A stretch of 59,805 nucleotides of DNA, filler included, from Sphacelaria rigidula (Eukaryota): NCBI GenBank assembly GCA_964200075.2. It is 9 parts of 9 records of this genome, joined end to end, with 100 filler letters (N's around TTAATTAATTAA, not from the genome) between each part and the next. Parts side by side here need not be neighbours in the genome. Positions count along the whole stretch, not along the records: positions 6,658 to 13,214 come from CAXNAA020019363.1; 8 more parts are not named here. One strand, given 5' to 3'. A program made the position numbers and the translations under genes. How positions within the stretch are numbered: position 1 is the first letter of the stretch; every line of letters starts with the position of its first letter. Below, in pieces: positions 4,358 through 53,250 of this stretch. The notes below the pieces were generated by a model. The model did not search any database. It saw nothing but the letters and a program-made list of their open reading frames with translations, and was not told the DNA's origin.

Positions 4358-5754
4358 TGTTCTAGACGGCGAGAGTAAGCCGTGTCTTGAAACGGTATCA
4401 ATTCGACTTGAAGGAAGTATGCATGATTCAGATGGACTACCCTCGCGGTCTAAGGATTAAGAAGGGCCCTGAGGTTATAGTTTGTTCGAAATGATCAATT
4501 CTCGAGAAATTTCTCACCCTCCCAAGTGGTGAGCTAACCTCAAAGCTCTACTAAACCCTGGGCGTACTCGAGTGTTTTTCATGCATTTTCGTCAATTATT
4601 GGGAAAACGTTGATTTCAACTTTTGAGGAGCAGTGTACCGTCGGGGTTCGAATTCGTGACCTTCATAACTGGAGTCTCCTGTATTACTTGAATTAAAGGA
4701 GCGCAGCGGTGTCACACAAAAAGTGCCCTGCTGCGCCCAAATTGAGGTATTTTTGGCCGAAATTGCACCAGGATCTCCTGCACACAAGTACGCACAAAAA
4801 CCCGAGGGATGTTGACTCCGACGTATTTCTTTATTTTCACGGAGTTATAGCATTTTTCCAGTTTATGCAGAAAGTTTGAATCGCTCTTTTATAGCTTCAT
4901 GTTTCTTTTTTCGTTGCATCCCCCGGAAGGTTGTGCGTATTGACAATGAAGATGTGTCGAAATTTCAGCGCCCAACTTCTCGAGTTACCCACAGCCGGGC
5001 CTGGAAACATTAATAGACCACTGTCAGCTGGCCCAGCTCGTACTCGGGAATGAAAAATCGAGCTTCAAGGTTAACAGGCAATCGAGTTTACTCGAACACA
5101 CCAGCGCGAGTACCTACAGCATCCAAAACTCGAAACTTGGAGTGGAGTACAGTGCAGTTGTCTCGTGAAGTTTCCTCGCACTTGTCCGTGTTCAAACTTA
5201 AATTGTCGGCCTTTTCACGCAAGAGCATGTTGGGCGAGACGCTAATTCGACCTCGGTTCGACTTTTATTCCAAGTAGACAAGAAGAATCTTTGTGTTCCC
5301 CACAGTGCACTTGCCCCTCGCTTTTTCGCTCAACTCGTCTTCATCTACGTCCGAGAACATGTCGGGAAGAGTGTACAGACTGCTTCGCGCTCATCACCGA
5401 GATTGTGTCATCAGCAAATGCCTGCGCAGTATCTACCCAATAGTCGCATACATAACATCATACTGACCGCCATGGACAGCTGAAGAGCGTGACATAGCCG
5501 GATCTATGTTTAAGGCCATAGTGGTCGCGCTAAGTGCGAAAAAGTACCTTGGCCAATCAGCTCCACCCAGTCTTCTGAAATCAAAGATACGAATTCCAAC
5601 CCCAATTTTCATTCAATCTCCACATGCATCAAATCGTGGTATCCGCCATTGGCTCGGGAATCTAATGAAAAAAACAGATTTGAAAACGGTTACTAAGGCC
5701 GGATGTTATGGCACACAGATTTTTGGCCCGCGGATTGTTCACTTTTGAGACGTT

Positions 5755-5940
5755 TGACTCCCTCTTTGACCCCCAAACAGAGAAAATCGCCAACACCCGT
5801 CTCGGACACTTTGCATCACCCCACAGGGAGGAGCCTAGTCTGCTTTTCAGATTCGCTCGGCTCCTCTCTGTGGGGTGATGCAAAGTGTCCGATACGTGTG
5901 TTGACGAGTTTCACTGGTCGGGGGTCACAAAGTGGCTCAA
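5755..5940. mobile_element. Foldback MITE-like hairpin
   Basis: Arms ...CGGACACTTTGCATCACCCCACAG... / ...CTGTGGGGTGATGCAAAGTGTCCG... with imperfect outer extension. Confidence 0.7.
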
Positions 5941-6557
5941 CAGTGTTGTTCCTTTTCAATATTATGGAGGCATTTTACTGAAATTATAATTCATTATCCG
6001 CGGCGTCAATCGAAGACGGTCATACTCGAAGGCCTAATATATGCTGAGACTAAAGAGGGCGGACGTCCTTGGAAGAGAGGTCTCCACACCAGCACAGATA
6101 CCTGGCGCTACAGACCAGCTTTCGCACGTTTGACAGCCGGATGGGAAAGGATGCCCATCACTACGAATGCAGAAAGCGTTTATTGCACGATATGTATCCG
6201 CGCAATTGTAAGTTGACACTGTGTGTTCCCAGTGCCAGTAAAACGAGTACTGTAGAACTGACTACGATGCGAGCCACGCCTCGACAGGGCTAGGATACCC
6301 GCGATCCATTCGTGCAAAAAAAACAAATTGCAACTCGCACTCTGTTCTATTATGGAACCAAGTGAAAACTCTGCACAAGGGTGATCATGCGCCTGCCAGA
6401 GAAAGGTAAATATCTTCACGTTGGAGCACACTACGGAAGAATATCTGATTGATTCTGATAGAAGAAAACTACAGCAACTGCCCCTGTCATTTTCAGACCG
6501 TCGTTGTAACGCCCAAGCTAGGTCTGACACTGTGAGGGAGGAGATGTTGTCCCCTGC
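5941..6557 (+). repeat. Unclassified interspersed repeat (copy 1)
   Basis: Colinear with 25583-26206 over ~620 bp. Confidence 0.85.
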
Positions 6558-6657
6558 NNNNNNNNNNNNNNNNNNNNNNNNNNNNNNNNNNNNNNNNNNN
6601 NTTAATTAATTAANNNNNNNNNNNNNNNNNNNNNNNNNNNNNNNNNNNNNNNNNNNN
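6558..6657. other. Artificial contig linker (44N-TTAATTAATTAA-44N)
   Basis: 100-bp spacer with stops in all six frames; identical at 8 positions. Confidence 0.98.
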
Positions 6658-6725
6658 AAAGGGATGCGTGGTCAATGGTCAAATGACTAAGGCAAGCAAC
6701 AAATGAGTACGCCTCCCCCCCCCGT
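6658..6725 (+). repeat. High-copy short repeat (GGGATGCGTGGTCAATGGTCAAA.GACTAAGGCAAGC family)
   Basis: Also at 13147-13214(-), 33683-33755(-), 38620-38700(+), 39770-39838(-); lies at three contig ends. Confidence 0.85.
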
Positions 6726-7477
6726 TTGATTGTCTACGCCCGGGATGGATGACAAAAAGGATATGGACGAGCCATGCGTGTTAGAAAAGCTTCGGGGCTA
6801 TGTGACCTTTGCTCCGGTTGTGAAGATATCAATTTCAACCATGTACTCATAGTTATTTAAAATTATTGATATATGAGTGATCGTTTGCATGTACAACTTC
6901 TGGATGTATCATACTTTGATTACTACACCCGCAGTGGTGGATCAACAGCCAGTGGGCTGCATGCGGCCAACATCAGTCGTTGATAATATCAAAAAGGGAC
7001 CGTCTACCAATTTCCCAGTTGTCACCCATGAATGGGATAATCAACTCAACTCCACAACGATTGGGCGGCTACGAAGGAAACCGTGAGCCGAGAGGTCTGC
7101 ACGAGGCTGCCAGACGAATGCTCCGTGAGCTCCCGTTGAGGGTCTACTGTGCGCGCCCCGACAATCAATTCAAAGTTGACGGTCTATCCGTATGTGCTAT
7201 GACCGTCGCCGGGACAGGGCTATATTCTTCTGGTCTTGAGAATCCACGGGTTCTACACATTCTTTGCCGAGATGTACACCGGAAAGAAACCGACGAGGGT
7301 TGTTGGCTGGTACTGAACGACTAATGTAATTATCGTGGATACTATGCACATTACTAGTATGTAAGCCAGCCATTGGGTGGATAAACGAAAAAGTTGTATG
7401 GACCAATAATATGCTTGCACCACACAGTAAGCAGGCAGGAAATCATCGCATACAGGGAAATGGGCGAGAACGAAGGC

Positions 7478-7730
7478 TCAACATGTCGAGACCGTGTGTA
7501 ATGCATGAGAGGACCGCGTGCTTAGAGGACCGCATCGGAATTCGAACACTCCTATGGTTAGGGTTAGGGTTAGGGCTAGGGTTAGGGTTAGGGTCGGGGG
7601 CGTGGTACCTGCAGGGACTGACCCAATTGGATTTGAAAAACGTCGATCCTGAGATATTTTTAACTACGGCGCGGTCCTCTAAGCACGCGATCCTCTCACG
7701 TATTACACCGTGCTTGTCCGAACATGTTGA
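7478..7730. mobile_element. MITE-like element with internal (TTAGGG)n tract
   Basis: 37-bp inverted arms 7497-7533 / 7671-7707 plus outer TCAACATGT/ACATGTTGA; about six telomeric hexamers at 7556-7593. Confidence 0.7.
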
Positions 7731-8299
7731 CAAGAGCCAGAGTTCCCATGCGTGCCCGAACAGGTTGACAGGGATCGAAGTCCAGGAAATTATCCTCGGC
7801 TGTCCCCGACATGGGAAACCATGGCCAAATGCAGACGCATGAATCTGTCTTGTCCGGTCAGGTTGCTGTTCCCTTCGTTCTCCTTTCCCTTTCTTGTATC
7901 CGCTTTCCTTTTATGCTGGAGGAGCGCTGCCGTCCATTCTACTTGCTCCATCGTTTCTCACGCCCGTTGATGATTCGGGAATGTTTCCAACCACGTCCCG
8001 CCCTCTGAGCTCACAGAGGATGCAATATACTGTTATTGATAACCCGGGGTGCGTTTAATCGGTGTTGTTACATCCATGTGGTACGTGCGTGCAGGTTTAT
8101 CGTTCCGAGTACCGCATAGCCAACTCAAAATCGACGAAATATGAGTGGAAACCCCTTGAATCCTCAAGCTCAGCCCTTCGACCCGCCGGGGTCAGCCCAA
8201 CAACCTCCTGTGCAAGCTCCTCAGCAGCAGTAGGTCGTCGTACCTTTTCAGCAGCAGCAGGTTGTCGCGCCCCCTCATCAGCAGGTTGTTGCACCTGTC

Positions 8300-10030
8300 T
8301 TGCAGCAGCAGGCTGCCGCGCAGCAGCAGATTCTTCATCAGCAACAGCAGGTCCACCTTGCCCCCAGGCACCAGAACGTCCCGCCGTCTGTCCCTGCGCC
8401 TCCTCAGCAGGTCAGTGGGCCCCGCAAGCGCCGGCTGCCGGGAATTTCGCTATTTCCTAGCTGCCGCCTCCGCCGCCGTTGCCCCCGCAGCGCCGCTCTC
8501 GGTATACGGTTGCGCCCGACCCGGTCAGTCTCTACTGCAACCCATTCTATGGGTCGCTGAATCCGTCCGGTACAACCCTAGCTGCTCAATCCAGGTCGGA
8601 TGGATTGACACCGTACGGAGCCACGTACCCTCGCATTCCCGCACCTCCTGCCCAGCCGTTCGATCGGAATTGGTCTGCGATACTGAGACACCAGGAAGTG
8701 GTAGCACGCCAGACCTCAAACGTAGCCAAGCTCTTGATAGCTAAGGATGCGGACACTGTAGTGTATAAGGGACGGTCCGTAGACTGGACTGGAGATTTAA
8801 CTTGCCGTAATCCCGCGGTTTTGTTCGTAACCATTTTCGTACTGCATGAGCGGCGTATGAAGGGGTAAGTTGCAGGGTACCCACAGACCTTCGCTTGACT
8901 GCCAAGCCGCTGAAACCACAAGCGGACCGATACACGGGCGGGCGTAGGGATCTACTCATGCGTGTTGTGCTACCCACCTCAGCCACCTGTACCGAAATGA
9001 CGAATTGGAGAGGGGCTACTACCGAGGTGCCCGGCGTAGCAGGCGACATAATGCGAGTACCGTTTGGAGATGTCACCGCCCTGGAATGGCTCAGGAAGTT
9101 AGTAGCCAAGCAGACCAAGATGGGTATAGGCCATGCAGAAATAGCTCTTAAAATCGTAGAGCTACTAAAGAATGAGAGCGACGTAGGGGCCGCTCACCGC
9201 CCCGTACGGTTGGTCATGGTAGCCACGATTTCCCCGTCCTTCCCGCACCATGCTGAAGAGGAATAATTCTGGAGAGCGGCCTCGGAGACTCTAATCTTGC
9301 GGTTGTGCGGAAGCTTTCACCGACTGGTGATGCCCAACACGACAGCACAGTTGGTAGCAAACACGCTGCTTCAAATCCCCAACAAATCTTTGGAGGATGA
9401 CGCCCGTATGCTGCCAGTCAACTACGGCGATCCGATCAGCCCCACGATGAAGAGGAGAGGGCAAACCACTCATCGCATCTATAACGACTACGTGTCGGCC
9501 CTTCAGCGCCACTGCGAGCGGGCCAACACTACGGGCGACGTTATGAACCACGCAGCTGCAGCGTTGACGCGCTCTACTAAAGTCACGCAGGGCACCAATA
9601 TCCGCGGGGTTGGTGGCGACCAAGGAGCGACTGCTGCGTGAAAACGCGGAAGAACAAGCCATCGAAGATAAGTTTAACTCCGTCGCCGCTTTTATTAACC
9701 AGAAGACATCAACGCCACGCGGTGGCACACCGTTCGGAGCTTCCCCTCCCGCTAGGGATACGCAGAAGCGCTCACGGGAAGGGTCGGCCAAACCGACCAT
9801 GCGTGTCAAGTTTGATACGCAGGGCGACGCACCGACGACCGGTTTCATCCCCGCATGTAACGCACCCCAAGGGGGCGCGACGTCGCCGTACGATTGTTGG
9901 TTGTGTGCTTCAATCACGCATACGGGCGTGATTGTAGCCGCCGTGAAAATGGGAGTCGCAACTACTCCCACATCATCCCTCTCGGCAATTATAAGCAGCC
10001 CGACAAGCCCCAAGCCAGGGAAAAGCCGAA
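8300..10030 (+). pseudogene. gag: Gypsy gag remnant with Q/P-rich N-terminus and frameshifted CX2CX4HX4C zinc knuckle
   Basis: CWLCASITHT(G)RDC at 9895-9935, broken by a 1-nt deletion; homologous to the ORF at 44684-46494. Confidence 0.75.
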
Positions 10031-10289
10031 AACAAGGAGGGATAGGCTGATGAGCTTGCAGCTGGGGAACTTGTTCAGCTTGATCGACAATGAGCACAAC
10101 GATCGGGGGTTGTCCCACAGCCTGAACAGTCAGGAAATCTTGTGTGAAAAGGAAGGAGCCGAGATCGTTGACTCGCTCAGCAAGCGTTTCGACGCCGCGA
10201 ACGATGGACGAGGGTGCGCCCTGGGGCCGCGATCTCCGGAGGACCGCGTGTATACAAACTTTTTAGCCGGGGTGAGTAGTAAGGACGCA

Positions 10290-10680
10290 CAGCAGCTGTG
10301 GGTACAAGCTAGAGTTTGGCACCACAGTAGGAGTAGCCACGACTTACCAGTAACGGTGTTACTGGACACCGGGGCAGGGGGGGAGAATTATGCATCAGTA
10401 CAGTGGTGTAAGTCGTTGGTAACATCGGGTAAATTAGCAAGCAAGTTACAACGACAGGGAGCAGTGTTTTTGAGGGCTGCGAACCCTAATAACAGTAGGA
10501 CACCGCCGATGAAGATCCTAGGGTCAGCGGTAATTCCAATTCGTTTCCACCCAGAAGACAGAATAAGGGAGGTATGAGCTCGGGTGGTCGATGGGTTACC
10601 GTACGGATTCATTTTGGGAGCAAGTTTCTTCAGAAGAAACAAGAGCACGTTATCTTTTGATGGTCGATCGGGATTTCGGC
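10290..10680 (+). pseudogene. pol: Retroviral-type aspartic protease remnant
   Basis: VTVLLDTGAGGENY (DTG at 10365) and downstream VVDGLPYGFILGASFF; in-frame stop at 10575. Confidence 0.88.
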
Positions 10681-11539
10681 CTTCGCCGGAGGCACCATGG
10701 GTAAGGCTCGTGTCTAACGGTTCACCAAAAGTCGGAGCTGTTGACACCGGCCACCTCACCAGCCAAGGAGATTCGGCAGGGTGGGATCTATTCTGTGCGG
10801 TCAAGCCAAGCGCGCCCAGTGACGATCCGACGGGGATGTTGTATGGTGAGAGCGACCTGGCAGCATGGGACGAGGTATGGAAAAGCTTCGGAGCGGCGTG
10901 GGAGGACGATGCTACGCTTCAGTGGCCACTGCACCTGACGGAGGACGTGCGTTTAGAAGGTTTCGTTAGCGAGCTAGTCCTAGGCTACGTACGAGGGCCT
11001 CTACCGCAGGAGCGGCAACTCGTGTTGATCGAACCTTGGAAGGCGTTCGATTTAGATGAGGAGTCAGAGGTAGGGGTAGCCAGAGGAGTCCAGTGGTGGA
11101 GCCCACAGTTACCATTAGTATGTAAGGTGGGCAACATCGCCAAGAGTGCTCGCCTTGTGAGAAAGGGTATGGTAGTGGCAAAGGTCCTGGCCGTGAATGT
11201 TCGAGATCGCGAGCGAATGCAAAGTCTGTACGTTTCCGACTCCGGCACAACGCTTAAGTCGAAGGTGGAGGATAGAGGGACTGCGTCAGTCCCTTCCAAA
11301 CAGCTGCCGGAATCGGCGGAAGTGAAGGAGAGTGACACGACCGAGTCCATAGGAGTAAATCTCACGGAGGTAAACATGGGCCAGTTGGGTCCAAAGCAGA
11401 AGGTCCAGCTGCTATCTTTGTCGAGCGACTTTAACGAAGCAGGCCTTTTTGCGGTGGATCCTAAGCGAGTGAAGGCCGCCCGTGGAGAACCGTTACGTCT
11501 ACAGCTAAAACACTCCAGATGTCAAAAAAATTCTACCGG

Positions 11540-12040
11540 CACTAGGCGGTACTCGCCAGAACAGGAAAAGGCTATTCAAGACGAGATCAACAAGCTCGTG
11601 AAGCGGGGGATCATCGAGCCGTCGACGTCAGCACAGGCAGCTGCTTGCGTCACGATGCGGAAAAAAGACTGTAGTTTACGGTTGTGTCTAGATTATCGTG
11701 GACTGAACAAACTTCCCGAGTCATACACCGGCGGTTTGAGGGATATGCAGACCATGTATAGTGGGCTAGCAGAATATAAGTACTTCACGAGTGTTGATTT
11801 AGCGAGTGGGTTTTTTCCAGTTGGCGGTGGCACAAGAGGACCGACACCTAACAGCCTTTCGCGATGCGCAGGGTCACTCATGGCAATACCAACGTTGTGG
11901 ATTCGGACTCAAGGTATTGCCTACAACGTTTCACCGAACAGTGTCAGAAGCGTTGTTGCCGGCGAGGGATGTCAAGAACTGGTTGGATGGCATCTTGTGG
12001 CCTAGTGCGACATTCGCCAGTTACATGACGGGGTGGAGAG
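11540..12040 (+). pseudogene. pol: Gypsy reverse transcriptase remnant, 3' truncated
   Basis: GIIEPSTS...RLCLDYRGLN...SVDLASGF(fs)FQL...TAF...CGFGLK...WLDG (YxDD decayed); RT thumb and RNase H missing. Confidence 0.93.
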
Positions 12041-12112
12041 TCGTATCCACCGGAAACGGGGGACGCGGTTACCGTTGGCTTTGAGCATCCCATGCCGGGA
12101 CCGGTGGAGGAA

Positions 12113-12972
12113 CGACCCTCCGCTTTGATTGTCCATTGTGGAGGCGGAAGGAGTATTCTGGCTGCTGAGGAGTTCTTGGAGGTGGTAGCGGCCACTGATG
12201 CAGACTAGAAAGCGTTGGATTGTCTTCGAGAGAACAAAATCGGAAAGGGAGTCAGGCTGGTACGTACGAGTCCGGGGCGCAGTTCTCTCCACAACCTTGT
12301 GGAGGAGGTGCAACCAGAAGCTTTGGTAAGAAATACAAGTAGGATTGCCTCCATTGAGCGGGGTGCGGCGGAGTCGGAGTCCGCCGACGTTGCCAGAGAG
12401 TTGGTCGAGACATTCCTCTCCTCAACTTCGGTGACAACTCTGATATTGGAGAGTACTACTGTAATGGTGAACTCTCCTGGTTGGAAGGAGCGCGTTGCTC
12501 CGTTGTTGAGCGGAGCTGGTTGCCTCACCGAGCAGGCCCCGAATCGGAAGAGACGGACTATGTGGTCGCTTTGAAAGCTGATCGTCAGAGGGAAGGGCCA
12601 CTGCGAGTGTGGAAGCAGCGAGTGGAAGCGCACGCCATTGCCTGCCCCACGTTGAGTCAGCTATTGGGGCGGATTGGCACCCACTTTCTGTAGCCGACGG
12701 GACAAGGCAAGGCTATTCACGATTCCGAGGATCCGATGCCCACGTTATCTCGCCCCCGGCTGACGAAAGGAAAACCAAGGTGCGAGGAATTCAAACTCCA
12801 CTGGGCGAACGCAGGGAGATGGGAGGAAGAAGTCGAGCTGGAAAGAGTCGATCTCGTGAGAGTCGCGACCACCCTTGACCGTTACGAGACTCCACCCACG
12901 GTGAATAACGACGCCATGCCAGAGATTCTGGCTAGTTTCGTTCACCCGTGGATGATGATGGCGGTTCTATGA
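12113..12972 (+). pseudogene. C5 cytosine DNA methyltransferase-like domain inside Gypsy pol, lacking the catalytic PC
   Basis: Manual translation gives motif-like blocks I, II, VI, VIII, IX and X in canonical order (see findings); stops at 12206, 12691, 12970; frameshift ~12558. Confidence 0.62.
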
Positions 12973-13214
12973 AGCTTGGAAGCGGGAGGTTTGTTGAACC
13001 TGACTCAGATTCAGAACGAGGATGAGGATCTAAGCGCGCTCGCAGCGATATGGCCGTGTGATAAAGCAGAGTCACTGGAAACTTGGGGAGCCGCCGTAAC
13101 TGGCTCGTCGGTTCACGAGCCAGAACATAAGTCAAACCAAGACGATGGTAGGGGCGTACTCATTTTTTGCTTGCCTTGGTCGTTTGACCATTGACCACGC
13201 ATCCCTTGCGAGAC

Positions 13215-13314
13215 NNNNNNNNNNNNNNNNNNNNNNNNNNNNNNNNNNNNNNNNNNNNTTAATTAATTAANNNNNNNNNNNNNNNNNNNNNNNNNNNNNN
13301 NNNNNNNNNNNNNN
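13215..13314. other. Artificial contig linker
   Basis: Same 100-bp spacer. Confidence 0.98.
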
Positions 13315-13385
13315 TGGCCATTTTTTTCGTGACACTTTTAGCTGGTATTGGGGGGGGGGCTATCATATGTGTCCGTAGTGAAGCT

Positions 13386-13720
13386 CTACTCGGGGGCATT
13401 AGTGGAGCAGCGACCCATGGTAAACCGCATATGGAATGGGAGAAGTGATGTACGGGACGTCTCAATGTGTGGGTAATACTTCGTGTTCAGCAAGCCGCCC
13501 TCGAACCTAACACGGTAAAAATGACCTCCCTGGAAGAACGTCACCAGTATAGGAGTGGGGCAGGAAGACAGAAGATTCAATCGCCGGACGCTTGAATGGT
13601 GTCCATGCAGATTTCCTGACACAAACGTGAGGTAGTTGTGTCAAGGGTGTCTAACTTCGCTTCAGGCTACAAGCCCGTGTTGGAGGCATCATCTGGTGTC
13701 GGTGAGCCAGCATTAGATTT
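13386..13720 (+). repeat. Unclassified interspersed repeat, inverted partner of ~27210-27545
   Basis: Reverse complement aligns with 27210-27545. Confidence 0.8.
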
Positions 13721-14412
13721 ACGTCACACCAGACACCTAACAAACACTAGGATTGGTATATTCGAGTACCTTGAACATGATCCATCGCACAACTGCAAAC
13801 AAACAAGTTGGAGACTTTCTCGAAAGAGATCGAGAGTGCGACAGTAATGCGGGGTGAATTATGCGCCACAGGGTGGACCGGTAAAGTACTAGTAGCGCTA
13901 GTATATGGAGTCCTTAGCGATATGACGAGAATAGAGTTCAAGAGGACATATGATGAAGTAGTACTGTACTGTTTGGCGATAGTAAAGATAGGAAAGGGAG
14001 GCGAATACTTCCAAGTCACGCTATAAACGAGAGCGAGCAAGGAGTGGTGGTGGGAGAGGCAAAGGCAGGTAAAGTGTCGGCATGAGGTAGAAGTGTAGCA
14101 TGGAGAGGACGTACAGACTGAATAATAGTGGAGGCTTCTTGACTGTGTAGTTGTAAAATATGGAAGTTGTCAGGAAAACGGGACTACATGCACGCGAAGC
14201 ATACGTGGAAAACACGGATCTTTGCCTGATATGGACAGAGCCAACAGACGAGAGTTATAAACAATATAGGCATGGTAGGAAGCTGTACAAATGGAGAATA
14301 ATATCCCTCAGAAAAATAAAGAACAGCTCGAGTTTCAAGGAGATGAACAAAAATACAGGGAAATTTTCCGAGCTGTTGAAAAGCGTAGTCACAGCTAAGG
14401 CGGGTTTTAACG

Positions 14413-15162
14413 CAGGGGATTTCCCCCTTTTCGAAAATCTTTTCTTGAAAGGGGATTACCCCCATCACGACCAGTTTGAGTCTTATCGAGAAGCAGTTTT
14501 GTCAAGAGCGAAGCCCAGATATGCACACAGGTTCAGAAATTCAGTGGTTTTGGAAGTGGTTGTTAGTCCAACGTCTCTGCAATGCTGCAGATAAGGCGCA
14601 ATAAGGCCAACACAACACCTACACACCCAGCCCCTAAAACACACGCACAGACACCAATCACTCACGCGCATGAGTTCCGGCGCTAGCCCTTGCTATTCTA
14701 CACACGGCAGTCCTTACTTGATGGAAATTCATTCTGTATTGGACGAATGGCGGCCGTATGCGTGTCAAAATTAGTCGAAAATGTGTCGTTGCTGACTGTT
14801 CGTGTGCGTGTGCGTGTGCTGTGCGCGCGTCCCACACTAATCACCCTTTCTTATCGACTTCTAAACAGATTTGGGCAAGTCGTGCACAGCGTGCTCAGCT
14901 GATGAGCAACTGTGGCTCAAGCTGTGTGTTTTTGGTTTCCGGTAGCACCAAGTTCCTTAGGTTTACCTCTGATTATGTTGGGTTGTTTGGCAAGCCTTCG
15001 CATGCGCCCCTGTCAACGGGACATGTATGTTCCCCTTCTCGGTGTCCGGAAATCCCCTTTTGACCGTTTTTCCGGGCACGGTTCTCGGGGGGTGGTATCG
15101 CAGCGATAAATCAAACCGTCGTTTTTGAGAAAGAGGAATTCCAAAAAGGGGTCAATCTCCTT
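14413..15162 (-). mobile_element. Second copy of the 3556-4357 TIR element, inserted in the LINE
   Basis: Inverted homology to 3556-4357; CAGGGGATTTCCCC terminus; LINE-like coding sequence on both sides. Confidence 0.8.
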
Positions 15163-15780
15163 TGATGAGAGCCCCCCGAATACCGAAATAGGAAGGGATC
15201 GGGTAGGATTGTAGAAGGATGGAAGCAAGTGATCGTACGTAACAGAGCAGTAAAATGATGGGATGAAGAAGTAAAGGAGGACACTGTATAAAAGTAACTA
15301 GGAAGGCCCACGCAAGACATACATAATAGAGTAAAGCTACGGCAGGGTAGGAACAGTATGCCACGGCTAGAAAAGAGGCATAAAGATGAAGCGGCAATAG
15401 AGAGGAATATGAAAATATGTAGTGAATAAAACAAATGAGAGATTTCGATTGTGAAATGAAGCAGATGTGGGTAGGGATAAAAGGGATAATGGGCAAACAG
15501 GCAAGAGAGACAGACAAGGGGATAGATACACCGACAGCACAAGGCGGTAAAATGGGTAGTAGTTCAAAGGGGTAGAGGGAAGTACAGTAGACACTACCGA
15601 AACCTAGGAACACTGACAACTAACAAGACGTCCAACGCGGAATTCGAGAAAGGAAACAACGCGTTGGTGGAAGTAAATGTAGAGGTATCAAAACGGCAAG
15701 ACATTGGGTCCAAAAAATTGAAGAGAGAGTTCATAAGAGAGGTAGTGAAGGAGTGTGTAGCCAAAATCAAGAGCAGAAAG

Positions 15781-15868
15781 CAGCGCTGACTTGTCAGTAG
15801 TCTAGTTGGTTGTCTCTTACACCGTCACAAAAGTTAGTGGCTGGTTCGATTCCCGTCGGACCCACTTT
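15781..15868 (+). mobile_element. tRNA-derived SINE head (Asp-GTC-like)
   Basis: A-box-like TAGTCTAGTTGG, CCGTCAC anticodon-like loop, B-box GGTTCGATTCCC; no convincing cloverleaf. Confidence 0.65.
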
Positions 15869-15869
15869 C

Positions 15870-16218
15870 TTTGAAGAAAAAGGAGGAGAGAAAACCTCTG
15901 TAAAAAATTGGCCCCAAGGAGAGAAAATCTCGGTAAAAAAATGGCCAAAAAGGAAACGGGTGGGGTATAGCCAGGTGACTATCTTTGGAGTGTACTACTA
16001 AAGACCCCAGTGCACACACTCTGGAAATGAATGGGGGAGACGAGTAACTCTAGGGTACGGTGAGAGTGCCAACATTAGGGGTTCTGATTGCAGTCGATAG
16101 AGCGCTGGCAAGGGGAGTCGCCCTCCTCGGAGTGAAAGTCACGGGGATCGAACCCCCACGACTAACTTTTGTGACGGTTTAAGAGACAACTAACTAGACT
16201 ACTGACAAGTCAGCGCTG
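15870..16218 (-). mobile_element. tRNA-derived SINE (head, body and short tandem tail)
   Basis: Same head on the minus strand (GGTTCGATCCCC); body matches 32940-33182(+). Confidence 0.75.
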
Positions 16219-18478
16219 ACTGGTCAGTAGTCTAGTTGGGTGTCTCTTAAACCGTCACAGTACACACGCAAGAGGTGGAGAGGAGGAGCAGCAGTGAACT
16301 TGTTCAAGAAAGGAAACAAGGCTGCTCCCAGGGAATTATTGAGAGATAACGCTACTGAGCACCGTAACAGCACCATAGCAGCACCATAGGGACAACATTC
16401 TCCAAGATTCTGAACGAAAACGTGGGAATGATAGTGGAGAAGGAATAAAACATCAGCGGGGGGCAAGCAGGTTTCAGACCGAAACGTCATTGCGCAGACC
16501 ATGTGTACACATTAGGTAAGGCTATATAAGGTGGGAAAGACGCGCAGCTAACTACGTGCTGTTTTTTCTGGACGTACAGAAGGTCTACGGCACAATATGG
16601 AACAGTGGGCTGTGGGAAAATATGTGGGAAAATGCTATCATAGGGAAAACGTGGAAAAAGGTGGAAAATATGACAAAGTGCGAGAAGCGCCAACATGCTA
16701 AATGGGGAAATATCGAAATATTTTTATATTTTAAAAGAGTTGCAAATCACTCCTCACTTGTGCAACCAAAGAGTCCTGAAATTGTGAAAAGGATGTACGT
16801 TATCACCCACTTTGTTCACGCCATTTCAAAACGACGTGGTATATAGATAGCAGCAAAGCAAGGAGTCCGGGTGGGGGAAGATACGGTATCAGGATTGATG
16901 TTCGCGGATGATTTTGTGGGGATATCAGAAACGCCAGAAGGATTACAGAGGCAGATAGAGAAAGCGCTAGTATTCGCAAGGAAATGGAGAATGACAGCGA
17001 ACGTAAACAATGCGCAGTAGTTGAAAGGAAGATGAGGAAAACGCGATATAGTCCAGATGTAAGAGGGGAGAAGAAGACTTGTCTACCGTAGACCAGTATG
17101 CATTCCTCGGCGTGAAGATCTAGAAATACTTTCATCAGGGTTCACACATAAATGAACTCATGGGAAATGGAAGGCAAAGATAGGCAAGATGGACGTGATC
17201 CTAAGAGACTCGCACCTAGATACTAGGATCCAGGGACGTATTCTGATGAATGTGATTGTACCAAAGCTGAAATATGCAGAAGAAGTAGGGGAGGTGAACG
17301 CGAAGTTGGTGAAGCAGCGGGAAACAGTCCAGATGGCAGTGGCTAAGAAAATACTTGGATGCTCAAAAACGACGAGTAATAATGTCGGAATCGAGAATAT
17401 ACTCACTTGAAACAGAGATATGAGGAAATTGAAGTGGCGCGATAACGCAAGGAACAAGCCAAGAGAGAGATTGCCATCCATGGTTGATATGGCTGTATGG
17501 AAGAAAGTAACGGGAGGTCAGACTGGAACAAGGTGGGATAGCGAAGTCGAGAATGTATGGAATGACATTGGAGGAAACCAAGACGAAATACTATCCATAG
17601 GTGACGGCGCGGGGCACAAAACAAAAGTAAGGGACATGACAGAGTAAGGGGGAAATAAGCACTCAGACGCAAAGTAGACGAGAAGGAGAACCGAGAGATA
17701 TACGGAGGGCTAAGAGAAGGGGCACGGGTGAAAACCTATCTGCACAGCCCACTGCGCGAAAAAGTTGAAAGTGCAATTTACGGTGGGGATCTCGATCTGC
17801 CAGAAAGAAGAAAGAGGAATACCAGAAGTCGGATGTAGGGAGTAGATGCACAGAACTGCCCTCGTAACAAATCAACAGGGGGTAGAACTCGTATAGTGGC
17901 AGAATGTGAACTATACAAGGCCGAACGGAACATGTTAGGGAAGTATGGGGCGTAAACGAAGGTGGCATGACATCGTTTGGTGCATTAGATCATTAGACAG
18001 TAGCCACAAAACGATGGTTATACTACGGGATAGATGGCGACTATAAACTGCGAAACAGGAAGGAAACCTATACTCTAATATCTCCATAAAAGCACAATCG
18101 ATTGTTCACGTGCTACAAAGGCATACAAGTAGGACCCATACGTGCCCCCTTTTTGAAAACGAAACAGCATATATTCTTTGGTGGTCGTGCGCAGGGACCA
18201 AAACCTAATGGCTAATGACAGCAACACGATCCAAATCAGGAGGGCATGGGTTCTCACGCACGTGACATATTATGACACGAGTGCAGGGAAACAGATAGAC
18301 CACAACAAGATATTTGAAGCATATTTCAACGGACCATTGCTCCACGCTCGGGCATCGAATGCTGCTCGATTCCATAGTGACTTCTGACAACAACACCGGC
18401 AGTGAAGATCTTGTTCACAATCTCGTACCACCTTTCGCCAGCCCATTCCCCCTCCGCCCTCACGGCGCCTTTGTGTAC

Positions 18479-33282: not shown

Positions 33283-34286
33283 TGGTTCGGCCCGAAGCCT
33301 ACTGATTATCTTGCATTTGGATAACAGCCAACAATGAGTTACTTTTTTTTTGTGGTATCGCCACTTCCAGAGACAGCCACGGCTTATACACTGCCTTATG
33401 GGTGCCTCACCATTCAAACACTACGTGGAACGATCATCCCCATTGTGCGGATTTGAGGTTCTCTCACGCCGCACAACATGATCTAGCGCGACTACCACCA
33501 TGGTTACCGCCAAAAAAAACGCAAGCGCGCAAAAGAAAACGGTAACCTGATGGCCTACCTCACGCAGTGAGTGGCACGTTTTATAGCGTCAGCGCCAACC
33601 GACGCAAACACAATCGGGGGTCCGCCCCTACATAGCCGGGACGGAACACGCCGGGTTCTCGCCGGACCAGGCTAATGGAAGGGGGGGGCGTATTCCGTTC
33701 TTGCTGGCCTTAGTCGTTTGACCATTGACCACACATCTCTTCGAGACGGAGCACCGTTCCTACTCCTAATAGAGACACCACCAACATTTCGGTGCTCATT
33801 ACATATTTTCCATACGTTGTCTAAAAACCGTTTGCATGTCTTATCCGCGCCCTGTTTCGTCGTCTGTGTGTAGGGGGGACATTATGTGTGTCATGACCTG
33901 GTAAGCGCGGGAGGGGGTAACATTTGTCGTATCGTCCGCGAGAGTCGATGGCGGGGAAATAACAGCAAGCATCCTGATATCATTAGCGGGGAAGGTGGTG
34001 ACGGGAGGGTGGCATGTGTCATTATCAAGTTGAGATCTGAGCGGGCGGCGTCTTTTACATTCTCCATGCATGGGTACGTTTCAGTAGTTGAACACTTCGT
34101 CGGGAGTCCATTCTTTTTCGGCAAAGAAGTCACACCGCATGCGAATGGCGCTAGGTGGGGGAAGGCTATAGGTAGCCAGAGTAGCGGTGTACCGTTCAGC
34201 GACACTGTCGAAGAGAGTTAGTCGAAAAACATCCCTGCCCCCCTCTCCCCCTCCCCCTCTCGCGAAAAACATCGACACCTCCTGAC

Positions 34287-38452: not shown

Positions 38453-39483
38453 TAGAGTTGTGAACTGGGTTGACCAGCTAGTTAACTGGTTGCAAAACAT
38501 TACATCCAGTTACAGTTATCAGTTGAAACTGGATAACTGATGGCGGAACCGCCCCGCGACTCCACCAGCGTTGCCTGGTAAGGCAACCCGACAGAGGTGA
38601 ACGCCCCCCCCCCCCCTCCCGGCTGCTCCGTCTCGGAAGGGATGCGTGGTCAACGGTCACACGACTAAGGTAACAAATGGGTACGTCCTCCCCCCCTCCC
38701 CACGGCTGGTGAGGGGGCCCCGCCAGAGGAAAGAAAAGTACGCCATTTGGCTTCAAATCTCTTCAAAGTTGCGGGAAATCCTAGCCATTCAGCGCCAGCA
38801 ATTCGAACACGTCATCAGTGCACAAATGTATAGTGTACGAGGGAAAAACAAAAACCACTGAACATTCCGACGTGAAATAAAAAACCGAAGCGGTGGAACA
38901 CTAGTGCAGCAGACATAGTGTTCCGCGTGTACCACCCAAGCACCAGGCACGACTAGTAGCACGACAACTTGGTGGCGTTATTGAGTGTGACTTCATTAGC
39001 CAGGGAAAATTAACGAAATTCTCGACTCTTCCTCATGCTTCGGCATCAAATTGGTCAGCCACCACTGAACAATTATAACGCTTGAAGCCGGCAGAATAAA
39101 GCAAAGAACACACAACAACGCTACGAAACGCCGCCTTGCTTCACATTTCAGATCCGCTCAATCGAAGACTGTCCGTGCCCAATCTCTGTTTTTTTCTTGT
39201 GTATTAGAATATATTGTCTGCGATACTTGTGTTTCATCTAGGTGTGTGCGCCGTGCGGTCATATATTCGTCTCTGTAACGGCGTCCCCACGGCCATTGTA
39301 GAACGAAAACCCTTCAGAAATGTTGACTTGAGTATGACACATATGTACACAGAAAACGTTGGAGAATGGCACATACGTCAGGTGAAATAACTGGTTCAAC
39401 TGGTGACAAAACCGAGCAGTTGACCAATTGCACCAGTATAATCGTAACTGGTCAGTTAAACTGGCAGCCAGTTCACAACTCTA
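38453..39483. mobile_element. Non-autonomous hAT-like element, 1031 bp
   Basis: Perfect 16-bp TIR TAGAGTTGTGAACTGG / CCAGTTCACAACTCTA; flanks ACTACAAC / ACTGAAAC (6/8, possible 8-bp TSD); subterminal AACTGG/CCAGTT clusters. Confidence 0.8.
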
Positions 39484-39838
39484 ACTGAAACCAAGTATAA
39501 AATCAACCATCGCATGCACGGCGCCCGACTGAGGTACCGTAGGTTACTCTACTGCAGAATCTAGTTTCCGCCGTAGACGGAAAGTAGGGCCTCAAGTAGT
39601 AGGGGAAGTTCCACGAGAGTTGACAGGGTGCGGAAAGTGCTGACTTACTATAGTCCTCCAAAGCAAAAATTCAGTCATGTACAGTGGAAGAGATGGGTTG
39701 ATCCCTTGAAATAAACTACGGACTCGTCCCGAGGAGAGGGAGATGGTGAAAAGGATGGCCGAACCATGGGGGGGGGGGGGGGGGGGTTCTCCTGTGTTTT
39801 TTTCCTTTGTCTGTTGACCATTGACCACGCCTCCCTTT

Positions 39839-44683: not shown

Positions 44684-46494
44684 ATGTCTGGCAGAGGCGC
44701 AGAAGGTGGTGACGGACGGGGAAGGAGGAACGGCAGACGCCGCTCAGACTTCAGGTTCTCCTCAGCACGCGGCAGTCGTTCCGATTCCCGGGACTCTCGC
44801 TCCCGCTCTCGCTTTCACCGCCGTGGTCGTAGCCGTTCCGATTCACGAGACTCCCGTGGCCCTCGCCGTAGCTCCCTCCGCCCCTCGCGCTCTCGTTCTA
44901 CCTTTCCTCGCCGCAACTTGTCCCGCGTGACTTACCGCTCCACGAGCCGTCCCAGAACGAACCGTGACAATCGGTCATCCAGGGACAGACACGAGACGGA
45001 GGGAAGCGTAAACAGGGAGGAAGGGGTGGAAGGGGCCGAAGCCAATCAACTGGCTAAGGTAAACAAACGGGTGCTGGATCGCATTGCGAACACCTCAAGG
45101 ATGCCAGTGTACACGGGCACTTTCCCAGGTAAGCTAACCATAGCGAACAGTGCAGTACTTCTTCAAGAAAAGATTTGGAGCACGTCGCGTCACGTGGAAC
45201 GTGCCGCGCTGAAGCTCCCCGAAGATGTACCGCTGGGTGGAGGAAGGTGGGGCACTAAAGTCGACAAGTACTCGCCCCGTCGCCGTGACTTACCCTTAGA
45301 CTTGCTTGCAAAGGGTAGCACTACTGCCACAGCCTTGCTATCGGGCACTGACGTTCGGGTGTACCTAATCTCAGGAGGATCGGAAATTGTCCGCCATGAG
45401 CAGGTAACGGCTGCCGATTGGTTGCGTCTGTTGGTGCGTGAAAAAGCTCTTAACAGTAACTCCGCCGAAAATGCACGAGAGGCGTTGAAGGAGATTACAC
45501 TGAAAAGCGGTGAATCTTGGGAGCATGTGGCTGAGCGAGTTTTGTTGGCTTATAAAGCCACCCTAGCTTGCGCAAGCCGTCCGCATGCCACTGAGACTGA
45601 CGTTTTCTGGACTCATCACGGAAGAGCAACTGAACGAACTATGTGAATGCATCGTCCGAGCCGTCTTGCCCGATGAAGCGCGCAGGGAGGGCATGCAATC
45701 AATGCTCCACGAGAAAATGAGCGTAGCAGACACCAAGCTCGCCGACATAGCAGAGGAGCTGCAAAACCCCCTGGGGGGACCTATGCGCTGCCGTGGTGAA
45801 GTGGCAAAAGGGTTGTACGAAGAGTTTATCAAAGTTCTCACTGCGCGCTCCTCGTCACATTACAGGAAGCCCGTCCAGAAAAAAACAAGTCGCACGGTAG
45901 GGCCAGATCGTCTTTTTTCCCTAGAGGATATTCAACAAATGTTCCCCGCGCAATTCGCTGCGCTCCGCGGTGGAAATGAAAGATTGATGCCCCGTCTTGC
46001 CGCAGACCCTGCGTCCGCTTCCAGAATCTTACCACAGATAGAGTACGCGCAACCACAACCGCAGTCGAGCAAGTGTGCTCAGCAGCAGACACTGGCCCTG
46101 GCGGCAGCATTCAACAACACACCAGGGGCCATCCCAGGACAGCACGGTGTACCTTTCGTGGAGCAGAAGCAACGGTCGGCCAGAGAAGTTCAGAATCAAG
46201 GTTGGGCAGCGGCCGCGAAAAAAGTGTCTTCGTCGCATGCTGCAACACCCCGGCCTTCAAGTTCATCCTCGGCTGGGAGCACCCGTGACGATCAAGCCGC
46301 CCTCTCCCCGACTGGCGACCGAGACGAGGTCATCGATTACCTCCGCACGAACAAGATCTGCTTCGGTCACGCTTTCACAGGTACCTGCCGCCGCCGTGAC
46401 GGCACTCCCTGTCCGTACACGCACGGCATTATCTCGCCTGCTCACTACAGGAACGTCCGGGCCCGCCGAAGAGCCGCTGTCCCCCGAAAGCGCC
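44684..46494 (+). pseudogene. gag: Retrotransposon gag-like ORF with RS-rich N-terminus and CCCH zinc finger; one frameshift at ~45610; truncated by the contig end
   Basis: Two overlapping long ORFs (44684-45646 and 45585-46494); homologous blocks to the gag at 8700-9520; C-x8-C-x7-C-x3-H at 46359-46424. Confidence 0.72.
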
Positions 46495-46825: not shown

Positions 46826-49066
46826 GTTCAGTCCATCGCTCCATGGGCACATTGACGATATCCGGAGCCCCGGGCCTTCGCAACCCTGTCAGCTTAAGGT
46901 TCAAATCCTGCTGATGATGTATCATGCCATGAATCGAACGCCCAAATGTCTTGTTCCTGAAGCGGATATTCCACCTTTGAACCACTGAACGTTCATGAAG
47001 CTGACATGTGACCCCATAAAGCGCTCACTGTTTCGAAGGTCAAATACCCGCTTCATAAACAAGCCGGGCTGAACCTTTGCACCTCAGGTTCACTATAATC
47101 GACGCTGCTTCCCCGGAGGTATCAGCAATTTTCAGACTTTTTGGATTCTGCGTTCAGACTTACTTCTCTGAAACGAAACGGCTTGATTTTCCCTCCGAAG
47201 CTTCGTTTTTGGAGAAATCCGAAAAATTCGGGCTGCAACGCAGCACTTCGACTAGGTGCGCTCTGTGTGTACGCCGTGATGGTCGCAAGCGTTCGAGGGT
47301 CACCAGGTGCCTCGCCAGTCCCGAGAAATTTGGAAACACCCGGAAAAAAGCAGTGTCGATAACAAAAGGCTCATACTCTGTTGAAAGTTCATTCCGCACA
47401 TATCCTAATTTCACGTGACAATAACCCCCTCTGTGTGGCGTGATTTGCCTTTGTTTTCGTTTGTTTTTTCCAGGGCGATGGGTGATTGCAACACTGCCAG
47501 CGGCCTATCTCTACCCGCAGGAACGACGACCAACGATGGGCAAGTTCTCGCGATTGCCGACGCTTTGTCTCTGCACGAGGGCGTCGACCAAGCATCCGGG
47601 TGCACGATTCCCTGCGCGCTGTCCCCCAGCAGTTGCTCCGATGGCAGGAACGGCTTGCCGTAGGGTGCCGCACTTGATGCTCCCGTTTCTTCACAGTAGG
47701 GACCGCACGGACCGGGAAGCTAGTCGACGTTTGTTCAACAATGGAAGAGTTTTTTTCTCACACCTGATGCACAGTCTGAACGGTGTGGCGAAAAAGACTA
47801 ACTGTAAATCGTTGGTTGAGGGTTCTAGTTTGAATCGTTATTGATGAACGTGCGTTTTGTTTCGAAAATACGGGTTCGCTTGAATCGCAAGCCTGGTTTG
47901 TCGACACTCACGAGAGCGGGACCGCGTGGTTTAGCTTTTACAAACGAGTACGCATTGAATGTGCTATGCCCTTGGTGGTGAACGTTGACCGTTTTAGCGC
48001 CCCCGGCCTGGTGCGGCTCTCGACAGTCCCGTCGAGGGGGACGATGTTGTAGACGAGGATAAGCTCAGCATGACGCCCGGGCGCCACAATGATTTTTCGT
48101 ATTTTATTTCTCGACTACTAGGAGCTAAGCAACCTCCATGACCTACTTGCTATCTTTGAAAAAAAAGCTGGAATCGTAGTAGGTCAGGAGGCGCTGGACG
48201 AGATGAGAAACGTCACAAATCTTGTAGTGCCCAGCACATGGATTTAGATTTACTTCTCGGTGGAACGGATTGTGTACGGAAGGACCCATCGACATCACTG
48301 GATGACCCCTGCATTTTTATTTTAATGAGTTACGTGACTGCGTAAAAAGTTTCCCTTGTATGTTACTTTCTCTTGAGGCCCTGGACTAGCGGCGGTGGAG
48401 TATATTTAGTTGAACCTTTTCGGCAGAAAAAGGAGGCGTTCATAAACGCCGCAGAGCCCTGCCCGTGTGTTGAGGATTGCATGAGGTGAAAATTTAATTT
48501 TTTGCAGGGGTGACGAGCTCTCCCGGGAATGTTCGGCTGCCTTGGGACTGACTATGTTAATGCATTGTACAGAGTGGCGGTCAATGTTGTCCAGATTATT
48601 TGATTGGTGAATGAGTGGTGCGGTGCCCCGACGCAGGCCTTGCGGAGAGTATGCTTAGGATTCATGGTATAGCCAGAGCTGTGGGTGGAGTGGAAGTATT
48701 TCGTATTTTTCGTGCAGTTGCCAAACTCTGTTTCAGCGGTCTTGCTCATGCGTGCTAACTAGCGGGAGTATATGTGCTGTGATGTATATGTGGGGAGTAG
48801 AACTTGAGAGCTGCCTGCTCAGACGCGTTATATAAACATAACCGAGTACTAGACCAGGATCCTATAGTAGGAATTGATCTGCACCGATCCTTGACTTGTG
48901 CTGTACAGGCCATCCACGAACACGTCGTGTGTTGTCATCTGAGACTACGTGGTACACGATGAGCATTTCTGGTGTGTAATTTTATCGCGGGTGTTACAGG
49001 TTTAGGCGGGAAACGTACCCATAAGCATAGGCATATTCATGGGGTGAATGATTTGTTGGGAGGGCT

Positions 49067-49109
<43 letters not shown>

Positions 49110-53150: not shown

Positions 53151-53250
53151 NNNNNNNNNNNNNNNNNNNNNNNNNNNNNNNNNNNNNNNNNNNNTTAATT
53201 AATTAANNNNNNNNNNNNNNNNNNNNNNNNNNNNNNNNNNNNNNNNNNNN
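53151..53250. other. Artificial contig linker
   Basis: Same 100-bp spacer. Confidence 0.98.

Follow-up and report, generated by a model that had tools for sequence, protein, structure and literature searches.

The window analysed in this study is a stretch of 59,805 bases from Sphacelaria rigidula (assembly GCA_964200075.2), composed of nine pieces of about 6556 bases with spacers of the form N44-ttaattaatta-N44 between them (for example 13215-13314); neighbouring pieces are unrelated and are not neighbours in the genome. In the second piece (6658-13214), we found a fragment of a Gypsy-type retrotransposon pol in which a truncated reverse transcriptase (RT) is followed, on the same strand, by a stretch at 12050-12999 that resembles C5 DNA methyltransferases. 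Given this position, the element is cut at or before 13214, and its other copies were known to us through protein libraries and through Logan contigs of four public runs. The evidence presented here led us to the view that the stretch is probably a decayed C5-methyltransferase-like domain of Pol, which the retrotransposon family has kept as a non-catalytic module.

Upstream of the stretch, the element could be followed by comparison with P0003, a predicted protein of 1592 amino acids that is the best long relative of the upstream open reading frame (ORF), with 37% identity. By tblastn, residues 1-483 of P0003 matched 10302-11822 (37% identity) and residues 479-552 matched 11809-12030 (46% identity), with a joint E of 9e-99 and a change of frame near 11810. 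The RT ends just past WLDGILW, the equivalent of the YXDD box, and P0003 gave no tblastn match downstream of 12030. The Pfam profile RVT_1 matched the RT of the window weakly (E 0.056), and no Pfam match was obtained for the nine upstream ORFs (6920-10577). Neither ribonuclease H (RNase H) nor integrase was matched by Pfam in 11944-13194 in any frame or on either strand, and no integrase was visible before the end of the piece at 13214. In P0003 itself, Pfam recognised RT, RNase H, a linker of about 270 residues, the zinc finger and core of integrase, and a weak C-terminal Tudor domain, in this order. Thus, the window copy has protease and a partial RT, while the full order protease-RT-RNase H-integrase is present in P0003 and largely present in two further relatives, P0047 and P0040. 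The comparison at the protein level supports the assignment of the element as a Gypsy-type pol fragment, as the preliminary description of this DNA had proposed from the sequence alone.

Past the RT, the reading frame continues in a damaged form. From 12029 on, frame 2 reads ...RPSALIVHCGGGRSILAAEEFLEVVAATDAD[TAG]KALDCLREN...QPEALVRNTSRI...TLILEST...LLSGAGC...PNRKRRT, and frame 1 then continues with YVVALK...IHDSEDPMPTL...ELERVDLVRVATTLDRYETP...EILASFVHPWMMMAVL[TGA]...QIQNEDEDL; every peptide quoted in the preliminary description was found in these two translations at its given place. Stops are present at 12206-12208 (TAG), 12691-12693 (TAG) and 12970-12972 (TGA), and the frame switches after 12557. 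At the junction between the RT and the leader of the domain, residues 437-510 of P0040 match 11812-12024 and residues 790-912 match 12113-12490, leaving 279 residues without a counterpart across 88 nucleotides (nt); compared with P0040, the RT thumb, RNase H and most of the linker have been deleted, and from 12044 the window aligns with the pre-domain leader of another relative, P0021. A further deletion of nine codons lies before motif VIII, where P0020, P0028 and P0048 hold nine extra residues (SVSAVQVGT-like) ahead of YRKRR. With three stops, one frameshift, this 9-codon deletion, the loss of RT thumb and RNase H, and an end before integrase, the window copy is a dead pseudogene, truncated and with an internal deletion, that has no function of its own, and 12050-12999 should be annotated as a pol pseudogene fragment rather than as a gene. 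The features of the piece are listed in Table 1.

Table 1. Coordinates of the pol fragment, the methyltransferase-like stretch and the adjoining features in the second piece of the window.
Feature	Position	Strand	Basis
Protease and N-terminal two thirds of RT, Gypsy-type pol	10302..12030	+	tblastn of P0003
Internal deletion junction, RT joined to leader of methyltransferase-like domain	12024..12113	+	P0040 and P0021 alignments
N-terminal (Rossmann) half of C5-methyltransferase-like domain, frame 2	12050..12559	+	family HMM, 169.8 bits
Motif I-like CGGGRS	12125-12160	+	frame-2 translation
Motif II/III-like TDAD[stop]KALDCLREN	12182-12235	+	frame-2 translation
TAG stop replacing the conserved Trp of D-x-D-W	12206..12208	+	relatives P0017, P0018 and P0021 read TDADWKA
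Motif IV-equivalent PEALVRNTS	12314-12346	+	frame-2 translation; alignment to P0056
AGT Ser codon at the catalytic-Cys position of motif IV	12338..12340	+	P0056 alignment
Motif VI-like LILES, Glu at 12449-12451	12437-12463	+	frame-2 translation
Motif VIII-like PNRKRRT/YVVALK	12539..12577	+	translations; one-base deletion after 12557
C-terminal half of domain, frame 1, with the proposed target-recognition-domain block and motif IX/X-like blocks	12560..12999	+	P0047 and P0016 alignments
Motif IX-like block	~12835-12903	+	mapping of the preliminary description; resemblance only
Motif X-like block	12922-12969	+	mapping of the preliminary description; resemblance only
Post-domain tail (QIQNEDEDLSALAAIW...)	13000..13150	+	P0016 aligns up to AAMW
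64-nt repeat ending the piece, outside the element	13151..13214	.	inverted copy at 6659-6713, copies in piece 6, depth

To find relatives of the stretch, we searched a library of 1.84 billion representative proteins by phmmer with the frame-2 half as query (P0001, the frame-2 read-through), which returned 51 relatives at E <= 1e-3 and 11 at E <= 1e-10. In this search of the whole library, P0037 and P0056 were matched at E 2e-7 and 1.4e-5, respectively, and BLASTP of the window against P0056 gave E 4e-13. A hidden Markov model (HMM) of the family, run over the 59.8 kb, matched frame 2 at 12050-12559 (169.8 bits) and, weakly, frame 1 at 12472-12654 (4.1 bits) and nowhere else, a match that is partly circular because the relatives had been found with the window as query. 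The two halves of the stretch belong together: residues 430-568 of P0047 match 12113-12538, and residues 604-736 match 12601-12999 without a gap (E 8e-15), so that both halves are colinear in one protein. P0016, a protein of 151 amino acids, is 58% identical to the frame-1 half and stays open across both of the frame-1 stops, and the C-terminal half was homologous among the window, P0016, P0020 and P0047. The tail at 13000..13150, for which no family match was obtained, may be a linker towards integrase. No longer relative of P0001 came out of a word-based protein search, metagenome-contig scans (with P0020 and then alignment A3 as query) returned no locus, and no further copy of the stretch was found within the window at the DNA or the translated level.

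Beyond the window, the whole protease-RT-domain region was repeated in the Logan contigs of the four runs, with a summed depth of 5,000-18,000 in run X1 versus about 54-79 for the exactly matching contigs. Most of the other copies have an extra C behind 12557, restoring RKRRTYVVALK (depth 972.6/1116.4 in run X1 and 3214.9/3235 in run X3), and most have C rather than G at 12971, which turns the TGA into TCA. These two differences remove the frameshift and the TGA of the window copy; most other genomic copies are therefore open at two of its four lesions.

Two simpler identities had been considered for the stretch. A chance resemblance was the first expectation; it was overturned by the repeated copies that restore the frame, by P0016 and by the 51 HMMER relatives. 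A decayed RT thumb and RNase H was ruled out, since neither the tblastn of P0003 nor Pfam found them there and the relatives show a separate domain.

The place of the domain in Pol became clear from the longer relatives. RT and/or RNase H lie upstream of the domain within a single predicted protein in six of them (P0037, P0038, P0040, P0046, P0047 and P0066). P0047 (1169 amino acids) has RT at 124-254, RNase H at 314-385 and the domain from 419, and then continues into an integrase-core-like stretch (rve E 0.063, the sole rve match in the family) and a weak Tudor domain (E 0.0085). P0040 (921 amino acids) has RT, RNase H at 555-640 and the domain at 784-914; RNase H followed by the domain was observed in P0037 and P0038, and an RNase H tail motif with linker precedes the domain in P0046 and P0021. 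At the level of predicted proteins, the domain was thus shown to be an in-frame part of Ty3/Gypsy Pol downstream of RNase H, in line with the preliminary description, which had placed it in pol. The linker motif PQGPxLDGVxL is all that P0003 has in common with these proteins here; it lacks a methyltransferase-like domain between RNase H and integrase, and the domain therefore marks a sublineage. Host names were looked up for 20 relatives and obtained for three, two Cladosiphon okamuranus gene models and one of Nemacystus decipiens, all from brown algae; P0047 is a Cladosiphon polyprotein and P0040 a Nemacystus polyprotein. In addition, the gag-like N-terminal part of P0040 (residues 75-232) matched 9132-9617 (+), upstream of the element, weakly and with 26% identity. 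Residues 6-125 of the same protein matched 45248-45622 (+) in piece 7, also weakly (27% identity), which suggests, at the protein level, that the window holds another fragment from a related element.

We next turned to the class of the domain. As the window copy alone was recognised by none of the domain and structure searches, the case rests on transitive homology. The Pfam profile of C5 methyltransferases, PF00145, matched P0056 at 23.2 bits, above the cut-off of 22 (E 5e-5, profile positions 95-178), and P0037 at 17.6 bits. An AlphaFold model of P0056 was built with the 50-sequence alignment A1, and the block means of the predicted local distance difference test (pLDDT) were mostly 82-97 over the core residues 90-270, with dips to 76 and 63. 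When this model was searched by Foldseek, DNMT2, DNMT1, M.HaeIII, M.HhaI, DNMT5, MET1 and DIM2 came out on top from E 2e-10, and the best 50 rows were almost all C5 enzymes, with one non-C5 chain at rank 31. VIA-align, which is independent of Foldseek and covered 48,161 chains, gave C5 methyltransferases in all of its top 13 rows (Z 16.0-12.6, 163-187 aligned residues); identity to C5 enzymes in the structural alignments was 11-19%. Among the neighbours of P0056 in the ESM Atlas, 29 of 30 were PF00145 clusters.

At the sequence level, motifs VI-VIII agreed with those of C5 enzymes. By hhalign, the family matched a reference profile of eight true C5 methyltransferases (E. coli Dcm and seven phage enzymes) at E 2e-4 over these motifs. 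A phmmer alignment set MENPGGF...GIPTTKRRVF of a relative opposite LENVKGF...GIPNSRLRYF of DNMT2 (E 0.19). Some Pfam hints within the family pointed weakly to other methyltransferase profiles, namely Methyltransf_11, Methyltransf_25, MTS and Methyltransf_34, and no Pfam match was obtained for the C-terminal half.

The conservation of single motifs was counted by column over 50 relatives, where the number of sequences varies from column to column, many of them being fragments. A glycine-rich loop in motif I and an acidic residue in motif II are defining features of C5 methyltransferases. In the family, two glycines of motif I are conserved (32/37 and 32/38; CGGGRS in the window), followed by a D-x-D-W block with D (D or E) in 41/44 and W in 39/43, which reads TDAD in the window; the register of motifs I and II rests on the order of strands in the P0056 model. 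R (42/44) and N (44/45) of the motif II/III block are nearly invariant, and the Pro of the strand ahead of motif IV is kept in 38/45. Motif VI retains its Glu in 29/34 relatives and in the window, while the Asn of ENV is present in 1/34, being replaced mostly by Cys or Ser, and the register of this motif agrees in three alignments (PF00145, phmmer to DNMT2 and hhalign). Motif VIII reads VG(I/V)P..KRR.FVVA.K in the relatives and aligns with PQxRER of the true enzymes and with GIPNSRLRYF of DNMT2, the Gln being lost.

The catalytic centre behaves differently. In the eight true enzymes, Pro-Cys (P176, C177), Glu-Asn-Val and Gln-x-Arg-Glu-Arg are invariant, whereas in the family the Pro of Pro-Cys was found in none of 43 relatives, with Ala the commonest residue in its place. 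Cys was present in 17/43, one of these rows (P0059) being possibly misaligned, and Ser in 11/43; elsewhere the Cys position holds S, T, F, Y, E, G, V or R. The residue after Cys has also changed, Gln being replaced mostly by Arg (26/39). The Cys column is thus the least conserved motif column, with neighbouring motif columns conserved to about 85-98%. In the alignment with P0056, PEALVRNTS of the window stands opposite PELLIANAC, which gives Thr-Ser at 12335-12340, and the closest subfamily of the window (P0017, P0019, P0020, P0023, P0027 and P0028) has S, T or R at the Cys position. From the aligned sequences, this uneven conservation speaks for constraint on the fold and on the motifs of the cofactor side, and against constraint on the catalytic centre.

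These results allowed most of what the preliminary description had claimed about the domain to be weighed. Its central claim, likeness to C5 methyltransferases, was borne out through the relatives, and the absence of Pro-Cys from motif IV holds for the window and, as regards Pro, for the family. Its proposed check by profile and structure gave a positive answer for the relatives (the P0056 model and PF00145) and a negative one for the window copy alone (Pfam and PDB). As to whether other copies retain the catalytic residues, Pro and, with one exception, the Asn of ENV are gone, while Cys survives in part of the family and the motif VI Glu in most of it.

We propose the following explanation for the whole of 12050-12999. 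The domain would have been captured from a true methyltransferase, probably before, or independently of, the loss of DNA methylation in the host. The family keeps the fold, the glycine-rich cofactor loop, the acidic residue of motif II, the motif VI Glu and the basic residues of motif VIII, and has lost the Pro-Cys dipeptide, Pro everywhere and Cys in most lineages, including that of the window. Selection at the level of the element would retain the domain as a binding module without catalysis, for nucleic acid or cofactor, while the element is being reverse transcribed or integrated. Homology, the place in Pol, the motif pattern and the decay of the window copy can be read directly from the alignments, and the fold class from the relatives, while we infer that catalysis has been lost, that selection retains the domain, and what its role is.

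Several results weigh against this explanation. The ORFs and read-throughs of the window (eight plus-strand ORFs, two read-throughs and eight minus-strand ORFs) gave no Pfam match at E <= 10; P0001 and P0002 matched nothing among PDB sequences, the rows for P0001 being at chance level (E >= 0.8); and in the ESM Atlas a 121-residue ORF of the window reached a score of 0.87 with no family. Within the family, PF00145 was matched in 2 of the 50 relatives and above the cut-off in 1 of 50, and the family profile built from A1 found no methyltransferase among PDB sequences. The hhalign probability was 46.6% (with alignment A4), and the E value rose to 0.0041 with A1 and to 0.83 against Dcm alone. The margin over generic Rossmann methyltransferases was moderate in VIA-align, these enzymes appearing from Z 12.2 with about 132-157 aligned residues, and the model of P0047 residues 392-822, which covers the C-terminal half, had pLDDT below 50 over fragment residues 235-335 and low values in most of the remainder. 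Most of the relatives are short predicted proteins, some of which may be decayed copies that add noise to the column counts. Selection is deduced from the conservation pattern, and "non-catalytic" may fail for the family as a whole, given the relatives that keep Cys after Ala or Gly. On balance, we accepted that the N-terminal half belongs to the C5-methyltransferase class, the fold class being taken from the predicted structure of P0056.

The retained Cys raises the possibility that the domain is still an active cytosine methyltransferase, at least in the sublineages with Ala-Cys, acting on the cDNA of the element or on the DNA or RNA of the host, in which case a cryptic methylation activity borne by a transposon would be present in some brown algae. 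The family keeps the Glu of motif VI, the glycines of motif I and the arginines of motif VIII, the C5 fold is confidently predicted, retrotransposon DNMTs methylate CG de novo in yeast according to the text of PMC5890265, and about 1.4% methylated cytosines are given for Saccharina in PMC6916402. We nevertheless consider this activity unlikely, since Pro is lost from every relative counted, Gln after Cys is mostly Arg, Asn of ENV is nearly always replaced, and no other motif column is as poorly conserved as that of Cys. As described in the text of PMC13076208, brown algae, presented there as complex multicellular organisms, have lost cytosine methylation and have no DNA methyltransferase but DNMT2, DNMT1, DNMT3 and DNMT5 being absent, and 5-methylcytosine (5mC) is negligible in Ectocarpus by the account in PMC12477816. 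In keeping with this, the observed/expected ratio of CpG was 0.97 in piece 2 and 0.87-1.10 over all nine pieces, and this ratio gives no sign of long-term CpG methylation. The preliminary description had called a methyltransferase-carrying Gypsy element unexpected in this lineage, and these reports, together with the three brown-algal hosts named above, agree with that judgement.

Similarly improbable is that the domain is a functionless relic of a captured methyltransferase, which drifts neutrally and survives by its in-frame position in Pol. The variety of residues at the Cys position is what such drift would leave, and Pol is otherwise complete in the sister protein P0003, where the domain is absent, so the domain is dispensable for that architecture. 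What speaks for constraint is that N, R, D and W of motifs II and III have been kept across sublineages that are 17-39% identical overall; a confidently predicted fold would also be unexpected under neutral drift, and a segment of about 380 residues that served no purpose should soon be lost from a retroelement through in-frame deletions. A resemblance of a general kind only, to another Rossmann methyltransferase dependent on S-adenosylmethionine (for example an RNA-acting one) or to an unrelated Rossmann fold, appears very improbable: the rRNA and tRNA methyltransferases close behind in the structural ranking (Z 12.2 and below), the weak Pfam hints, the missing PDB methyltransferase in the sequence search and the fact that DNMT2, the top Foldseek match, is a tRNA enzyme would fit it, but PF00145 is the only methyltransferase family above its curated cut-off, the Atlas neighbours are nearly all PF00145 clusters, the C5 enzymes lead both structural rankings with longer alignments that run past the Rossmann core, and the register of motifs VI-VIII is the same in three independent alignments.

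The C5-methyltransferase-like domain can be compared with several known systems. Relative to enzymes of PF00145 such as M.HhaI, M.HaeIII, Dcm, DNMT1 and DNMT2, the family shares the predicted fold, the motif order I, II, IV, VI, VIII, the motif VI Glu and the basic residues of motif VIII, and differs in the missing Pro-Cys, the change of ENV to E-C/S and the embedding in a retroelement polyprotein. Retrotransposon-encoded DNMTs have been described by de Mendoza et al. 2018 (PMC5890265) in SymbioLINE-Dnmt and SymbioDIRS-Dnmt3 of Symbiodinium and in KnitGypsy-Dnmt3 of Klebsormidium; according to the text of that article, their key residues are kept, they are under purifying selection and they carry out de novo CG methylation in yeast. 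They resemble the present case in having a C5-methyltransferase-derived domain inside a retrotransposon frame, which in Klebsormidium also lies in a Gypsy Pol. Here, by contrast, Pro-Cys is gone and a single relative in 50 reaches the Pfam cut-off; their hosts, as described there, have methylated genomes, whereas the hosts named here are brown algae reported to be without DNMT1, DNMT3, DNMT5 and 5mC. The words brown alga, Ectocarpus and stramenopile are absent from the text of PMC5890265.

The EpiLTRs of Cymbomonas and Euglena are DNMT-bearing long terminal repeat (LTR) retrotransposons, among which the portion available of the preprint (bioRxiv 10.64898/2026.05.21.726589) lists no brown-algal case. 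They combine a DNMT domain with a chromatin reader in Pol, to which the DNMT-like domain and the weak Tudor-like domain of P0047 would correspond. According to the same source, EpiLTRs also carry a Dam-like adenine methyltransferase and a chromodomain, and their DNMT, which groups beside DNMT4, is attached at the 3' end of pol; the present family lacks an adenine methyltransferase, has a weakly matched Tudor-like reader, and carries the domain between RNase H and the integrase-like core.

A Tudor-carrying Gypsy lineage, Gypsy-10_Ec32, has been described in Ectocarpus (Genome Biol 2025, PMC12477816). Like this stramenopile lineage with its C-terminal Tudor domain, P0003 and P0047, the best polyprotein relatives of the window copy, end in a match to PTM_DIR17_Tudor, at E 0.0034 and E 0.0085, respectively, both under the Pfam cut-off. 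By protein comparison and by the description of the lineage in that text, the weak Tudor matches would tie the family to the Tudor-carrying Gypsy elements of Ectocarpus. The text of PMC12477816 mentions no cytosine methyltransferase-like domain for any Gypsy lineage, and 'DNMT' occurs in it 0 times. In the literature, as covered by article texts without figures or supplements, we found no report of a brown-algal or other stramenopile Gypsy element with a C5 methyltransferase domain. The retrotransposon DNMTs described in the articles searched keep their key residues, and none of them is from a brown alga.

There is also a wider and more tentative reading, which we regard as possible but doubtful. 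A brown-algal (perhaps also other ochrophyte, for example diatom) Gypsy lineage would have selectively maintained a C5 fold without Pro-Cys, in which the pseudo-enzyme and the Tudor-like reader together bind DNA or chromatin and steer integration, as a fossil of a methylated genome from before the loss of DNMT1. In a bolder form of this reading, the Ala-Cys sublineages would still methylate nucleic acid, and brown algae described as 'methylation-free' would then have a transposon-borne source of 5mC. For the inventory of DNA methyltransferases in brown algae, given as DNMT2 only in the text of PMC13076208, a methyltransferase-derived domain in an abundant Gypsy family would be a change. Ordinary domain searches miss the domain because only one relative in 50 passes the Pfam cut-off. 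It would also offer a natural experiment, in which the host of a transposon's 'epigenetic' domain lacks the corresponding mark, could serve as a dated marker of how methylation was lost in stramenopiles, and is a candidate integration-targeting module beside the Tudor-like domain.

Some further features of the window lie outside the element. A scan of the window against Rfam gave no match. Upstream of the element, 7315-7752 had a summed depth of about 540,000-590,000 in run X1, with many contigs cut at 7496/7497, and is probably another high-copy repeat. Proline-rich, low-complexity and coding-like stretches at 49057-49271 (-) and 53035-53368 (+) match the PPPP tract of P0003, most likely for reasons of composition. 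Finally, the second piece is bounded by the 64-nt repeat of Table 1 and by its inverted copy at 6659-6723 (aligned over 6659-6713), and the repeat recurs in piece 6 at 33685-33747, 38630-38688 and 39781-39837. Its summed depth was 1.8-3.5 million in the public runs (1.8 million in X1) versus about 54-79 for the exactly matching contigs, and the contigs that extend beyond it lead into poly-C or poly-G tracts; possible origins are a short interspersed element of very high abundance, a satellite unit, or an artefact of assembly or library.

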